Source: an uncultured Hormoscilla sp.
GTDB lineage: Bacteria; Cyanobacteriota; Cyanobacteriia; Cyanobacteriales; Desertifilaceae
DNA: 64,000 nt
Reading direction: 5' to 3'
Assembly: GCA_963921275.4 (NCBI GenBank)
Contig: OZ001293.3
Span: forward strand, 1,568,001-1,632,000
Shown: piece after piece, positions 16,376-64,000 of the stretch
Position numbering within the stretch: position 1 is the stretch's first letter
Layout: every line of letters starts with the position of its first letter
Position numbers and translations under genes: made by a program
Notes under the pieces: model-generated
Told to the model about the DNA's origin: nothing
Seen by the model: the letters and a program-made list of their open reading frames with translations, nothing else
Database searches by the model: none

Positions 16376-17243
<868 letters not shown>

Positions 17244-19104: not shown

Positions 19105-19619
19105 CGTGGCACCAAATAGGGTATTGGCCATGATATTTGGGGTCGAGTTGGCCCCAAATTTGTGCTCCGATCCTAGAGTGAGGAGTAATTCTTATGGGAG
19201 ATAAAAAGAGCAGACCTGTGTTGAGATTGAGATCGTGGTGGTCCTTGCTAGCGCTCGTCATGTTGTTGGCTTGGGGAACTCTCCCCACAACGACGAGCAC
19301 CCGGTTACCGTTCGGCCTGGGATTGCAAAATTCGACAGATCCAACAGCCGATCGCATCGGCCAGGATCTGGAACGAATAGAAAAGCAAGTCCGAGAATTC
19401 ACTCTGGACAATGGGTTAAAATTCATTGTCATGGAACGCCATCAAGCGCCAATTATATCATTCATTACCTATGTAAATGTCGGGTGTGTGAATGAACCAG
19501 TTGGGAAAACGAGGGTGGCTCACTATTTAGATCATTTAGCTTTCAAAGGTACTACTCGCATCGGCACCAAATATTACGCAGCCGAAAAACCTCTACTAAT
19601 TAAACTGGATCGATTATTC

Positions 19620-21795
19620 GTTGGTGTCTTTAGTTTTTCGCCACCTTTGAGCGGTTGTGTAAGGCATGATCTCGTTGGACGACAAGGAAGAATAACGTCA
19701 GATAGCTGTGCTCATTCGGGAAAGCTCCTATTTCATCAGACTTCCTGGGAAACTTTCCAAGCGTTCGAGTAAGTTAGAGGTTCTCATCCTACAATGTAAC
19801 TCAGGCGCCAATTGGTAGAAAGTCAAGGTCAACTCAAGAGCTCTCTGGAACCTTTGCACTGCCTTATATTCCAGAACTTCCCACTTCAGGAAAAACGCTG
19901 CCAAGCGCTGTTGTGCTTCCTGTGAGCGAGGGCGCAGCGTAAAGAGCATAAGCATCATTTTGAAGAGGATAACGACGCTGTTGTTTGGCTTGGGAGTGAG
20001 TTAGCTGTTGTCCCATCTCATCATGTTCGGGGAGTTGTTGATAGCTCAGATCGTCTTGGAGCCGTCCCACAAGGTGGGTGATGCATCGCTGTTGCTTGGC
20101 CTTGGGCAGATGTTTGGTCATGGCAGCAGGCAAACCTAAAGTCCCATCACTCACAACTACTTCAACAATTTCTGCTTGCAGACCCCATGCCATTAAGTTT
20201 TATATGAAGTTTTCCCAGGCCAGGATGTCAAGACAGTTGGGCAATTTCGTAATGTATAAGTTGGTAGCTGCCATCTGGCCAGACAGCCATCGCCGCCAAA
20301 ATTACACGCTCTTGAGCTTGCCCCATCTGGCGGAGATGTCCTGCAGGGTCTACTTTGGATGGGGTCGAGCCGGGAATCGCTTCCCGACCCTCCCTTGAGG
20401 AACCGGACTTGCGATTTTCACCGCATCCGGCTACTGGGTACTAGGCCCTTTTCATAGGTAGACTTAATAGGAATTACTTCCGTTAGCCCTTGCCGCCTGT
20501 CTTTTCTTCCCTTTCCTGGTTTAGCGAGTGGTTGTTCTGATAACCGTTAGTATCACCATTTTCAAGTCAGTTTTACCAGTTATCCATACCTTATCCTCCA
20601 CTTGCGTTTCGGATTAGTTCCGTGGCTTTTTAGGATTACTCATTCCAGCAGCTTCCTAGTATCACCGACCCACGTCAGCGCTGGCTACCCAGCATCATCT
20701 ACATTACTGTAGATGTTATCCCAGGAATTACCCCGGGCATTCGCTTCTTGGGCCATCCCTCCCCCCGTGGCTTGCGCTTAACATCTAACTTGTCCTGATG
20801 GACAGCACACGAGAGGTTACTTCGTTCCCTAACAACATTTCGCGATACCTTTAGGTCCACACTATACCCCGGGAGCTATTTGAGTACTATATTAGCCAGA
20901 GTCTAAAACTAATACTAGCTACCATTTCCTTTTTAGGCCAGCGCATATAGCCTTATTTCGCTGGTTCCTTATAACGAGGCTTGCACATGTTTGCCTGCTC
21001 TAACCTTGGATATCTTTCCTAGCGGCGTCACCGGCTTAGGCTGCCAGTTATCCTACATTTGAGTCCTCGCTTAGCACCACGATGATGTCGCTTCGTAGCA
21101 CCGAGGACCGGTGTCACCCCCGTACCTGGGGGGAGGGGAATTTAACCCCCATGCGGTCAGAGTTCCCGGCTAATGAAACCGGGCTAGCGTTCCGTGTTTG
21201 ACCACGTTAGGCTAGAACGAATCGCACAAACTCTTCAAGGGTATATTGGATGTCCACCCAGACCCCATCTACAATCAAGATGGGGGGCGTCTTCTCAATC
21301 ACCGATTGACGATGTTTATCCATTTGCTGTTGAGCTTGTAAAGTAATAGGATTGATGGCACTCACAGATAGGACACTGCCCAGAAGAGGATAAAGTGCCT
21401 CTTGCAAGTCCCTGAAGGATAAACCCATCACATACAGACATAACCCCAAGTGAGCGAGATTCTACCTAGTAACCACAGCTTATGTGCGAGCATCACAAAT
21501 TTATTAAATTGACGCCGCAACTTTTTTCAATCGAGGACATTTAGGCATTCTGAGAACAACATTTTCACTCCTAGGGCGAGAAACCGTGATTCTTTCGTAG
21601 AAAGTTGCACCGAAGCGTTAAATTGATATACTGCTGTGGGAGAGCCCTCACTGCAGGCTATCGGGCCAAATCGCCAGAACCATTGAACCATAAGGGTTGA
21701 GCACCAGAATAGCCATTTTTCGATGTGTAATTTAAATGCGCGACAGCTTACTCCCATTAACAAAGGTAAGGTGGCGAAGAATTCCAGACACCAAT
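19620..21795 (-). mobile_element. Degraded IS256-family-like element
   Basis: Imperfect TIRs TTGGTGTCT-N7-TTCGCCACCTT; 8-bp target duplication GATTATTC (19612-19619 / 21796-21803); transposase fragments GLSFRDLQEAL, ILIVDGVWV, VVSDG, QRCITH and RTSNLLER. Confidence 0.85.
20357..21227 (-). mobile_element. ORF-less group II intron (intron 2, 871 nt) inside the IS256-like transposase
   Basis: 5' GTGCGATTCGTTCTAG; domain V AGCCGGATGCGGTGAAAATCGCAAGTCCGGTT. Removing it restores ..TLEEF|KVDPAGH.. Confidence 0.92.
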
Positions 21796-23062
21796 GATTA
21801 TTCGATCGAATAAAGTCAGTCCAAACAGCCGGAGATGGGGCAAAATTGGCGGAAATCCAGGAGGAGTTCGAGCGGGTGCGATCGCAGGCATCAAGTTACG
21901 TAAAGCAAAATGAATTCGGTCAAATTATCGAGCGGGCAGGGGGAGTAGGACTGAATGCGACGACTTCGGCAGATGCCACCCGCTATTTCTTCAGCTTACC
22001 ATCCAATAAGCTAGAACTGTGGAGGTCTCTGGAGTCGGAAAGGTTTGGCGATCCGGTGTTTCGGGAGTTTTTTGCCGAGAAAGAGGTGATCCTGGAAGAA
22101 AGACGCCTGCGCACGGATAACTCTCCTATGGGTAAGATGATAGAAGCATTTCAAGATACTGCTTTCCAAGAACATCCCTATGGCCGTCCCATAATTGGTT
22201 ATGAACAAGATATCCGCAACCTGACGCGGCAAGATGTAGAAGAATTCTTTGCAACTTATTACATGCCTGGCAACATGACAGTGGCAATCGTGGGAGATGT
22301 GGATCTGGCAGAAGTGAAGCGGTTAGCGGAAATTTACTTTGGGAGCTATCAAGATAAACAGTTACCAAAAGATAAAATCCCAGAGTAACCGCCGCAAACA
22401 AAAACGAAGGAAGTGACGGTAGAGTTTCCTTCTCAACCCTGGTATTTGGAAGGGTATCATCGCCCAGCCATGAAGCATCCAGATAATGTAGTTTATGAAA
22501 TGATTGGCAGCATTCTCAGTGACGGTCGCACATCACGGCTATATAAGTCTCTGGTAGAAAAGCAGCAAGTAGCCCTGGGAGCAGCAGGTGAGAGTGGTTT
22601 CCCTGGGAATAAGTATCCTAATTTGATGCTGTTCTATGCCGTGACTGCACCCGGTCGTACTGTAGAAGAGGTAGCGGCAGCTTTACAGACAGAAATTGCC
22701 CGCCTGAAAACGGAACCGGTTTCCCAAACAGAATTAGACCGGGTGAAAACTCAAGCAAGGGCAGGTCTGTTGCGGGCGATCGGGTCTAACGCCGGTCTAG
22801 CTAGTTTGTTAGTAGAGTACGAAGCGAAAACGGGTTCTTGGCGGAACCTGTTCCGAGAAATAGATATGATTGAAAAGGTAACGGCAGCAGATATCCAGCG
22901 AGTCGCCCAGGCTACCTTTACCCAGAAAACCGGACAGTGGGGCGTCTGTTACCAAAATCTTAAGCAATTCTCTCATGCAAAATTCGTAGGTTGGGTTTCG
23001 TGCCTCAACCCAACCCCGCCGACGTTGGGTTTCTTCCCGTTATCAATTTTAACCGACTCAAG

Positions 23063-23917
23063 CTAAGGGTGGTCTTGAGAGTACTGCTGGACTTCTTCTA
23101 TGGTCAAGCTCAGGGTTTGGGCGACCTGCTCGGCGGTTAAGCCAAGAGCTAATAATCTGGGAACTGCTGCTCTTTGAGCCTGTTCAGCCCGAAAAGCCCG
23201 CTCCTGTTGTTGGTCCGCACGCTCTCGTTCGCGTTCGGCTCGTTCTTCTCCCAGCAGTAAGAGATTTCCCTGGGAGTCCCACCACCGCATCCACGGTTGA
23301 TTTTGGTTCTGATAGAAACCCCGCCATACTCCTAGTTCTACTCCCAAGGGCGGTATGGGATAATGTCCTCGTTCATTGGGTCTCATCTGCTGGTAAGATC
23401 CCCCTTGCAACTCATAGAATTCTAATGAACCGCTATTGACAAAATAGATGCCATAATAGGGAATATTCAATATTTGCTCGTAAACCCAGAATTTTCCCGG
23501 CTTGATGAGATTACCTTCCGAGTCGCGAGCCATTGGTGTATTGTTACGTTTGGCAGAACCATTACCACTGGCAAACTCTAAGACAATCTGCGGTATGGTC
23601 GGTTCCTTCCATAACACGTAGGAACGGCGAATCTGGGAGTCAATCAAGGGGGGCACCCCTGGTACATAGAACCAGTCCGGTGCTACGGCCCCTGCTTCTG
23701 GCGGATCTGCTTGGATCCAGTAGATACCGCAGTCTTGCCCGATCGCATATTGTCCGTCGGGGTGAAGTTGTCGTAATACTGGTCCAATTGAATCTGTGAG
23801 AATCAGGCTTTGGGGATGTTCTTGAAAATTCTTCACAAATGTGCCATCCGACTCTGGTAGCTGGGTGTGGTCTGGTAAAATCGGAGTCTTTACTATTTTT
23901 TCTGCTGTGGTGACCAT
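23063..23917 (-). CDS. Uma2/DUF820 endonuclease-family protein, array copy U1
   Basis: LPESDG, APDWFYV, VLEFAS, KFWVYE; coiled-coil tail. Confidence 0.9.
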   Translation of the reverse strand: MVTTAEKIVKTPILPDHTQLPESDGTFVKNFQEHPQSLILTDSIGPVLRQLHPDGQYAIGQDCGIYWIQADPPEAGAVAPDWFYVPGVPPLIDSQIRRSYVLWKEPTIPQIVLEFASGNGSAKRNNTPMARDSEGNLIKPGKFWVYEQILNIPYYGIYFVNSGSLEFYELQGGSYQQMRPNERGHYPIPPLGVELGVWRGFYQNQNQPWMRWWDSQGNLLLLGEERAERERERADQQQERAFRAEQAQRAAVPRLLALGLTAEQVAQTLSLTIEEVQQYSQDHP

Positions 23918-59063: not shown

Positions 59064-59969
59064 TTATTGACCCTGTTGAGCTTCCAGTTCCCGTAAGCGA
59101 GTTTGCAATTCCTGATTTTGGGCTTCCCATTCCTGGAATTTAGCTTCCCATTCCTGGAATTTAGCTTTCAATTCCTGATTTTTAGCTTTCAATTCCTGAT
59201 TTTTAGCTTTCAATTCCTGATTTTGGGCTTTCCATTCCTGAGATTTAGCTTCCCATTTCTGAGATTTTGCTTTCTATTCGGTGGATTTCAGCAACCGTTC
59301 CCCAGTTTCCATATCTTCCAGCAATAAACGACCATCCTGCATACCGATCCATAACCCTAGAGTCTCGCAGGGGATGCGTCCGTCATCGTCTGGAATAATA
59401 GGTTGATAGCGTCCGGCTACTAACCGATAACCCAGCACCTCATCAATTACTTGACCCCGCAGACTGCGGCGATCTATAATTACATATTCACCAATGGAAG
59501 CCTGTTCGTATTGGAGCACTTTAGTTTGCTTGTCTTCCTTGCGGTAACGAGGCGATACCACTTCCAGAACAAAAACTGGTCGCACTCCTTCCGACGCAAC
59601 TACAAAGGTAGAACGATACTCCTGCTTGTTACGGATGCCAAACGCCACGAACAGGTCCGGACAGTGCTTTTTCAAATCGGGATTATCCCATTCGATGGAC
59701 AGGTCCGTGAATACTCCCACTGTTGGGTCTTCCTCATAGCGATCGCGCAACATATCCCGGACATCGCTAGTAACATCAGAGTGAAAACTATTGCTAGGCA
59801 AATAATAACCCTCCTCTGGGTACAAAAACTCCATAGAGGTAAGAGGAACCTGGATATTTTTAATTGTACCATCCCGTTGCACTTCCTCTACATATCGCCA
59901 GCCTGTTAAAGTCAGATATTCCCCCTGTGCGGTTGCTACAGTAGATGATAGTAACCCAGACTTGACCAT
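59064..59969 (-). pseudogene. Uma2 protein with a 21-bp heptad-repeat tail cut by TGG>TAG at 59274
   Basis: HCPDLFV and VLEVVSP; paralogue at 62716 reads KSTEWKAK; frame stays open to 59064. Confidence 0.8.
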
Positions 59970-63384: not shown

Positions 63385-64000
63385 GGATGGGGTCGAGCCG
63401 GGAATCGCTTCCCGACCCTCCCTTGAGGAACCGGACTTGCGATTTTCACCGCATCCGGCTACTGGGTACTAGGCCCTTTTCATAGGTAGACTTAATAGGA
63501 ATTACTTCCGTTAGCCCTTGCCGCCTGTCTTTTCTTCCCTTTCCTGGTTTAGCGAGTGGTTGTTCTGATAACCGTTAGTATCACCATTTTCAAGTCAGTT
63601 TTACCAGTTATCCATACCTTATCCTCCACTTGCGTTTCGGATTAGTTCCGTGGCTTTTTAGGATTACTCATTCCAGCAGCTTCCTAGTATCACCGACCCA
63701 CGTCAGCGCTGGCTACCCAGCATCATCTACATTACTGTAGATGTTATCCCAGGAATTACCCCGGGCATTCGCTTCTTGGGCCATCCCTCCCCCCGTGGCT
63801 TGCGCTTAACATCTAACTTGTCCTGATGGACAGCACACGAGAGGTTACTTCGTTCCCTAACAACATTTCGCGATACCTTTAGGTCCACACTATACCCCGG
63901 GAGCTATTTGAGTACTATATTAGCCAGAGTCTAAAACTAATACTAGCTACCATTTCCTTTTTAGGCCAGCGCATATAGCCTTATTTCGCTGGTTCCTTAT
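63385..64000 (-). mobile_element. ORF-less group II intron (intron 3), copy of intron 2, truncated by the window edge
   Basis: Reads identical to 20357-20972 over all 616 visible nt. Confidence 0.92.

Follow-up and report, generated by a model that had tools for sequence, protein, structure and literature searches.

A high-copy ORF-less group II intron family of Hormoscilla with a terminal CC that belongs to the intron

Introduction

Where does a group II intron end when the letters after its domain VI read AUCC, so that a customary AU is followed by a CC that every copy shares? The question is raised by an intron lying in a transposase gene of an uncultured cyanobacterium, Hormoscilla sp. 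In group II introns the base before the last, normally A, corresponds to the A of the spliceosomal AG, and the prevailing view is that it touches G1 during the second step of splicing. The GUGYG...AY consensus and its known exceptions have been reviewed (PMC4424553). The original prediction, made from the letters of the DNA, gave the final CC to the intron, placed the bulged branch A at an unusual −9, and held that the intron must use an intron-encoded protein (IEP) supplied in trans; its observation was correct and its interpretation is partly supported by what follows. The window, by which is meant the whole stretch of 64,000 nucleotides that was analysed, is G000:C1:1568001-1632000, where G000 is the assembly and C1 the contig.

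The intron unit, its copies and its targets

The unit is on the minus strand and runs for 871 nt from GTGCGA at 21227 to ..CTCGACCCCATCC at 20357, its first letters being GUGCGAUUCG and its last ..GGCUCGACCCCAUCC. Domains V and VI match RF00029 at 20359-20435(-) and, in a second copy, at 63387-63463(-), with 44.4 bits against a gathering cut-off of 40 bits. No ORF overlapping the unit is longer than 106 aa, which leaves no room for a reverse transcriptase of about 590 aa. The predicted coordinates hold, as does the absence of such an ORF. The second copy, part of which is cut off by the end of the window, occupies C1:1632255-1631385 in the genome and is, as had been claimed, without any difference (100% identical) in an unrelated host: copy 1 is in a Mutator/IS256-type transposase gene (PF00872) and copy 2 in a Uma2 gene (PF05685). 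Their flanks part after ..CCCCATCC, with AAAGTAGACC following in one case and TTGCACCCGG in the other. The features of the window, all on the minus strand, are as follows.

20357..21227, minus: copy 1 of the ORF-less group II intron (871 nt), in the IS256/Mutator-type transposase gene
63385..64000, minus: intron copy 2 (3′ 616 nt; the whole is genome C1:1631385-1632255), directly after Uma2 codon 3
21223..21227, minus: 5′ end GUGCG (canonical GUGYG)
21228..21233, minus: IBS1 of copy 1, GAGUUU, pairing with EBS1; family consensus GAGUCU (logo of 111 site groups)
21236..21240, minus: IBS2 of copy 1, CCUUG, pairing with EBS2; family consensus CCUUA at -13..-9
20967..20972, minus: EBS2, intron 256-261, (A)UAAGG, hypervariable among families
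20899..20904, minus: EBS1, intron 324-329, AGACUC
20864..20864, minus: EBS3, U364 in GGGGUA(U)AG, covarying with the first base past the 4-nt tail
20758..20758, minus: gamma, G470 in J2/3 (A468 G469 G470 G471 A472), covarying with the last intron base
20399..20432, minus: domain V, with the AGC triad at intron 796-798
20361..20394, minus: domain VI with a GCGA loop; bulged branch A863 is window 20365
20357..20360, minus: 3′ tail AUCC, with the non-canonical base at penultimate C870 and gamma′ at C871
20356..20356, minus: IBS3 of copy 1 (A), base 1 of the 3′ exon
16379..17243, minus: another ORF-less intron, the third here and distinct from copies 1 and 2 though of their lineage; about 865 nt, with tail GGCU and 73% identity

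The third intron sits 3 kb from copy 1. Halves of an M16-type peptidase gene, at window 19194-19772 (+) and 21846-23066 (+), flank the transposase element, and the transposase that hosts copy 1 appears to be itself inserted in that gene. Downstream of the intron the transposase frame breaks again: it stops after 42 codons and goes on in a different frame.

Genome-wide there are 138 full-length copies with identities of 98.6-100%, 61 of them identical to the window copy, and 22 partial HSPs besides, numbers that chance does not come near to explaining. The full-length copies reduce to 119 distinct flank pairs and these to 111 independent site groups, which bears out the recent mobility that had been proposed and shows it to be massive. 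The 5′ boundary is GTGCG in 137 copies and GTGTG in one, and 136 of the 138 start with GTGCGATTCG; the end ..CCCCATCC is common to all full-length copies, a lone ..ATTC variant occurring in the wider set.

The target logo of the 111 site groups comprises IBS2 at -15..-9, IBS1 (GAGTCT) at -6..-1 and an A at +1 in 82 of them, and it is complementary to AGACUC and UAAGG, the pairings EBS1-IBS1 and EBS2-IBS2. In a congener family both EBS blocks differ, together with its flanks. A candidate EBS2 at intron 221-227 (AAGGUUA) was dropped, as that block is constant in all families whatever their target; positions 256-261 vary with the target.

The terminal CC belongs to the intron

At the DNA level the terminal CC is part of the intron, and five independent lines agree on this. 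No flank position is invariant and the CC is invariant, in 138 of 138 copies; when the copies of the whole genome and their flanks are compared, divergence follows the CC and not ..CCCCAT.

The first line comes from empty sites. Insertions outside other intron copies occupy 113 distinct sites; for 24 of these the genome has intron-free paralogues, and the CC is absent from those of all 24 (202 matches lack it and none has it). The Uma2 gene has four paralogues free of the intron, of which one lies in the window near 59884; they read ATGGAGTTT/TTGCACCC (a slash marks the junction), that is MEF/LH without CC, and so agree with the frame that the original prediction had restored. For the transposase host no intron-free copy is present in the genome, the sole other copy being also intron-bearing.

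The second line is provided by introns within or beside introns. Five nested copies, at intron 768/769 (AAGTCT/ACCTATG in intact copies), each add exactly 871 nt, and tandem copies, one double and one triple, both head-to-tail, show ..ATCC/GTGCG.

Host reading frames are the third. Over 114 distinct sites, taking out the full 871 nt leaves 23 ORFs that extend for 80 aa or more to either side of the junction, and keeping the CC leaves 3; at a threshold of 100 aa the numbers are 19 without CC and 1 with it. Twelve of the 23 genic insertions found with the 80-aa threshold are sense and 11 are antisense. For eight sense insertions the exon halves were profiled separately against Pfam, and in four of the eight a domain runs on across the junction: DUF3352 at profile positions 188/189, PhyH at 137/140, DUF6851 at 107/113 and pPIWI_RE_Z at 110/116. 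A fifth sense host has MS_channel_1st before the junction and MS_channel_2nd after it.

The fourth line is the gamma-gamma′ pairing. When 15 representatives of the sister families are aligned, the purine of position 470 is in a J2/3-like A-G-R-G-A stretch directly after the covariation-supported domain II stem, and it is G when the final base is C and A when the final base is U. The tally over 236 full-length ORF-less copies is G-C in 138, A-U in 89, a mismatch in 2 and no motif in 7. An unbiased scan of all columns finds that only column 470 partitions with the last base, the one exception being a misaligned row.

EBS3-IBS3 pairing is the fifth. At 200 distinct sites the first exon base past the CC, or its equivalent, forms a Watson-Crick pair with EBS3 in 164 and a U-G wobble in 21, and the states U-A, A-U and G-C occur in different families and also inside one cluster: A-U in two small families and half of a third, G-C in another family. 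In the congener family, which is 91% identical, position 364 is G and +1 is C in four of five copies.

Which part of the 3′ end is unusual

Related domain V/VI 3′ ends number 392 in the genome, and each has exactly 4 nt after the ACCCC of domain VI before the flanks part. These tails are ATCC in 147, GACT in 107, GACC in 68 and TAAT in 45, the rarer ones including GGCT, TAAC and AGCT. Because all 392 share a 4-nt tail after ACCCC, the ‘AU’ end of the Rfam model is a coincidence of the tail of the ATCC family. The penultimate base is C in 337 (86%), A in 50 and U in 5, and the last base is Y in 390.

The distance from the branch point is ordinary. A863, which is bulged in the Rfam and alifold structures (both predicted), has 8 nt after it, as in sister families ending in AAU or AAC. 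For comparison, in ai5γ it is A880 within an intron of 887 nt. The contrast that had been drawn between a branch A at −9 and a known −7 or −8 mixes two counting conventions; the splice site follows A863 at a distance of 8 nt, which falls in the ‘7-8 nt’ range stated for typical introns (PMC1865049), and the supposed anomaly is a spacing common to all 392 related ends, the AAU and AAC families included.

What remains is the penultimate C in place of A, and this is the sole deviation from the group II consensus. The 3′ boundary is not AY, its last base being Y and its penultimate C, and the element is kept among the group II introns because AY belongs to the consensus and RmInt1 is an exception already in print. 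That intron naturally ends in CC, and the authors who described it call the penultimate pyrimidine unique (PMC4238363). The penultimate C is thus a real deviation, and a CC end as such is on record. In the account given there, the penultimate base of model introns is tied to an interaction with G1 and is important for the second step, and each substitution of the penultimate C of RmInt1, C to A included, reduced the second step in vitro (PMC4238363). Within the portions of the literature covered, RmInt1 is the only such end found; others may exist.

No column of the whole alignment covaries with penultimate A versus C, even with one exception allowed. Within the tail, positions -4 and -2 are coupled over the 392 ends, with U and A together in 49 and non-U and C in 334; mixed states are rare (TACT or TACC in 3, GAAC in 1), and no partner column for the coupled positions was found elsewhere in the intron. 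The CC end is a lineage-wide variant with one published precedent and no new mechanism.

Mechanism and alternatives

With the boundaries in the DNA, the logo of the target sites and both covariations established, the best explanation of the locus as a whole is, very probably, a non-autonomous ORF-less group IIB intron that spreads by retrohoming as an 871-nt unit with its 3′ splice site after C871. The excised and inserted unit would be the 871 nt GUGCG...ACCCCAUCC, with branch A863 8 nt upstream from the 3′ splice site. C871 would pair with G470 in J2/3 (gamma-gamma′), and exon base 1 with U364; EBS3-IBS3 pairing is the one expected of subgroup IIB. The excised RNA would reverse-splice into DNA sites that pair with EBS2 (UAAGG), EBS1 (AGACUC) and EBS3 (U364). 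The inserted RNA would then be copied by a reverse transcriptase whose gene lies elsewhere in the genome. Copy 2 has a T at +1, giving a U-U mismatch, and its IBS2 pairing is partial. From sequence we infer splicing at C871 in vivo, lariat formation and help in trans. In the sole run recorded as RNA (X20, share 0.05; 24 runs were found) there is one 757-nt contig about 93% like the intron and no joint, and the DNA runs show no intron-free form of the locus.

A different view of the same unit is that, owing to its penultimate C, it splices poorly in the forward direction, joining exons inefficiently or inaccurately, and is mainly a selfish, gene-disrupting retroelement and not a phenotypically silent intron. 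Of the 23 genic insertions that pass the 80-aa threshold, 11 (about half) are antisense, and no splicing out of host mRNA is open to them; many copies are within IS elements, IEP genes and other introns, and in vitro the C run at the 3′ splice site of RmInt1 has been associated with low fidelity and with atypical circles (PMC4238363). Reverse splicing, however, starts from an intron that has been completely excised, which requires both steps to proceed at a useful rate, and the 12 sense insertions lie in long open host frames with profile continuity, though these are perhaps too young for decay. Furthermore, as every substitution of the C of RmInt1, C to A included, lowered the second step, C can be an adapted state (PMC4238363). 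Poor splicing as the main character of the element is therefore considered rather unlikely.

It could also be held that the intron has a canonical end, ..CCCCAU, and that CC is the start of the 3′ exon, kept since the element inserts only upstream of CC. The RF00029 alignment does stop at AU and every copy does have CC next, but the five lines above (empty sites, nested and tandem copies, frames, gamma-gamma′ and EBS3-IBS3) exclude such an end at the DNA level: the paralogues at all 24 sites lack the CC, nested and tandem copies add 871 nt and not 869, a retained CC breaks host frames and Pfam profiles, and both covariations indicate a site 2 nt further downstream. The equivalent two positions are, moreover, GA, UA or GG in sister families, and a splice site after AU would be just 6 nt from the branch A. 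An AU end is accordingly regarded as highly improbable, and the assignment of the CC to the intron, which the original prediction had made, stands.

That the copies are an assembly artefact or a segmental duplication, with no intron mobility, can be set aside as having almost no likelihood, for although some sites were duplicated along with host repeats (hence 111 site groups from 138 copies), the flanks of the 111 groups are unrelated and share only the EBS-complementary logo, related families are present in congeners, and the unit exists outside this assembly, as is attested by a run under another organism's label, in which an 873-nt contig spans 20356-21228, and by 17 of 24 runs among those listed, which contain at least half of the words of the searched stretch.

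Candidate helper proteins and spread

The retrohoming intron preferred here would depend on a protein from elsewhere. A 592-aa IEP is present in many copies in the genome, at least nine matches spanning residues 1-592 without stops; it has the domains RVT_N, RVT_1, GIIM and HNH. Among solved structures its best relative is chain 6ME0_C (‘Maturase reverse transcriptase’, E 3.9e-114), which we take to be the T. elongatus T.el4h protein. The introns that bear it have a different domain V/VI, with domain VI ending ..GGCUUAGUUUAAU/ and 7 nt after the branch A, and the 67 IEP-type 3′ ends found are all AAU or AAC. The helper IEPs belong to a separate ribozyme lineage with canonical ends.

No intron of the ACCCC lineage with its own ORF was found in this genome. 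Three ACCCC-TAAT ends with an IEP ORF upstream were considered as ORF-bearing members and rejected, being twintrons with an IEP-type intron inside. BLAST of the ORF-less domain IV against the region upstream of the helper IEP start gave no similarity, and the only Rfam match to D1-D4, seen with a permissive threshold, was RF01999, weak at 22 bits against a cut-off of 36 bits and too little to place the intron in a class such as IIB1 or chloroplast-like (the TeI3/TeI4 and EcI5 type). A search for loci related to the IEP returned two, neither from Thermosynechococcus. With no ACCCC-lineage intron having its own ORF and intact IEPs elsewhere in the genome, trans-mobilisation would seem the only evident route, and ORF-less introns in general depend on it according to the bacterial intron database (PMC3245105). 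The claim that the intron must use an IEP in trans is to this extent reasonable, intact IEP genes being at hand; its ‘must’ is better read as ‘probably’.

Several arrangements of the copies deserve description in their own right. The 871-nt intron lies antisense in a helper-type IEP gene at G000:C1:1058425-1061059 and at about ten similar loci (1148045-1150679, 3088618-3091252 and 3651020-3653654 are among them), at residue ~461-465 and always in one site, ..CTTTACGTGTCT/GATTATTTCAG. A non-autonomous intron disrupts here copies of the type of gene on which its dependence is presumed, and the intron-in-IEP composite seems to have been copied onward. There is also a sense insertion in the reverse transcriptase domain of an IEP gene (G000:C1:2801581-2802451) with the junction ..KPKWV/L/DADIAKCFDKIDH, around which the residues match an uninterrupted IEP, ..SKWVLDADIAKCFDKIDH, one for one.

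Head-to-tail arrays without spacers, of two and three full copies, are at G000:C1:824934-826675 and 5447656-5450268; they fit repeated insertion at one 5′ exon, since IBS1 and IBS2 survive the first insertion. Twintrons at 768/769 occur at G000:C1:1325884-1327625, 4741852-4743593, 5180205-5181946, 6029574-6031315 and 6410256-6411996, and their outer flanks differ. Two readings offer themselves: a hotspot for self-targeting, CCUAUUAAGUCU/A being similar to the IBS logo, or movement of the twintron in one piece.

Lineage and evolution of the tail

Congeners (assemblies G001-G004) hold the same lineage, with tails AGCC, GACC, TAAT, TAAC, GCCC and AACC. A share of 0.44-0.70 of the words of the searched stretch, about what the intron accounts for, occurs in runs X5-X19, which come from many studies and carry different organism labels, so the family is widespread in related material and not private to the assembly. 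In the literature covered, no paper that pairs Hormoscilla with a group II intron was found.

On a tree of 17 contiguous full-length representatives, out of 238 sequences and with the tails left out, the penultimate A or C state changes at least three times. The -4 base (U with A, non-U with C) switched too in three of three independent pairs, a result with p 0.25 in which n is too small for significance, and recombination between introns could yield the same -4/-2 pattern. A tree of 25 representatives, with seven penultimate changes, was dropped because of chimeric rows that joined an inner intron to the tail of an outer one.

The penultimate C in 337 of 392 ends versus AAU or AAC in all 67 IEP-type ends, together with the coupled -4 changes, could point to a selected tail state, as opposed to a defect that is tolerated, and to a contact so far unrecognised. 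The penultimate-C tail might be favoured in helper-dependent introns through a 3′-tail contact that shifts the balance of ligation and reverse splicing, or the use of a foreign IEP, and so promotes proliferation; this is a speculative idea that we consider improbable.

Comparison with known systems

The nearest parallel in way of life is TeI3 of Thermosynechococcus elongatus, mobilised by the IEPs of TeI4 (Mohr, Ghanem and Lambowitz 2010, PMC2882425) and likewise cyanobacterial, of group IIB and with EBS1, EBS2 and EBS3. As described there, TeI3 is like the present family in being ORF-less, in its genome-wide proliferation, in having families with diverged EBS and in inserting into introns (PMC2882425). 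The scale is larger here, with 138 copies and 392 related 3′ ends as against the 28 introns reported for T. elongatus (PMC2882425). It also differs from the TeI introns, as far as that account describes them, in that most 3′ ends have a penultimate C and the IEP-encoding introns have a domain V/VI clearly unlike that of the ORF-less lineage. The helper IEP, though nearest to 6ME0_C among solved chains, is in a ribozyme lineage other than that of the ORF-less introns.

RmInt1 of Sinorhizobium meliloti (Chillon et al. 2014, PMC4238363) shares the natural CC end and high mobility, and also the last C paired with a G in J2/3 and the penultimate pyrimidine. In contrast to the present intron, which has no IEP and whose helper IEPs have HNH, RmInt1 carries its own IEP, which another abstract describes as lacking the endonuclease domain. 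The exon after its CC is reported to start with CC (PMC4238363), and that here starts with A. The present lineage, unlike RmInt1 as described, also has CU, AU and AC ends. Assignment to the RmInt1-like class (class D) was considered and rejected: there is no IEP in the intron, the IEPs of the genome carry HNH, and just the CC end is shared.

In B.c.I4-type introns (Stabell et al. 2007, PMC1865049) the standard model likewise puts the 3′ splice site upstream of its real place, an extra domain of 56 nt shifting the site to about 60 nt from the branch A. Here, in contrast, the 2 nt that seem to extend the intron are an artefact of alignment, and the distance from the branch A is an ordinary 8 nt. 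The class with a 3′ extension (domain VII), a structured segment of 50-70 nt past domain VI, does not apply, as only 4 nt follow ACCCC.

Significance

After RmInt1 this is a second, unrelated lineage with a penultimate C, and it is present at very high copy number. The interest of the finding is moderate: the branch-distance anomaly, half of what was claimed, dissolves, and there remain a warning for the prediction of intron boundaries and a natural series at the penultimate nucleotide. Boundary finders that expect AY, and the Rfam model of domains V and VI, will misplace these 3′ ends by 2 nt and will then predict frameshifted host genes in the genus. Since penultimate-C families coexist with close AAU and AAC relatives, the tails UAAU, UAAC, GACU, GACC, AUCC and AGCC form a natural allelic series with which the penultimate base may be probed in splicing and reverse splicing.
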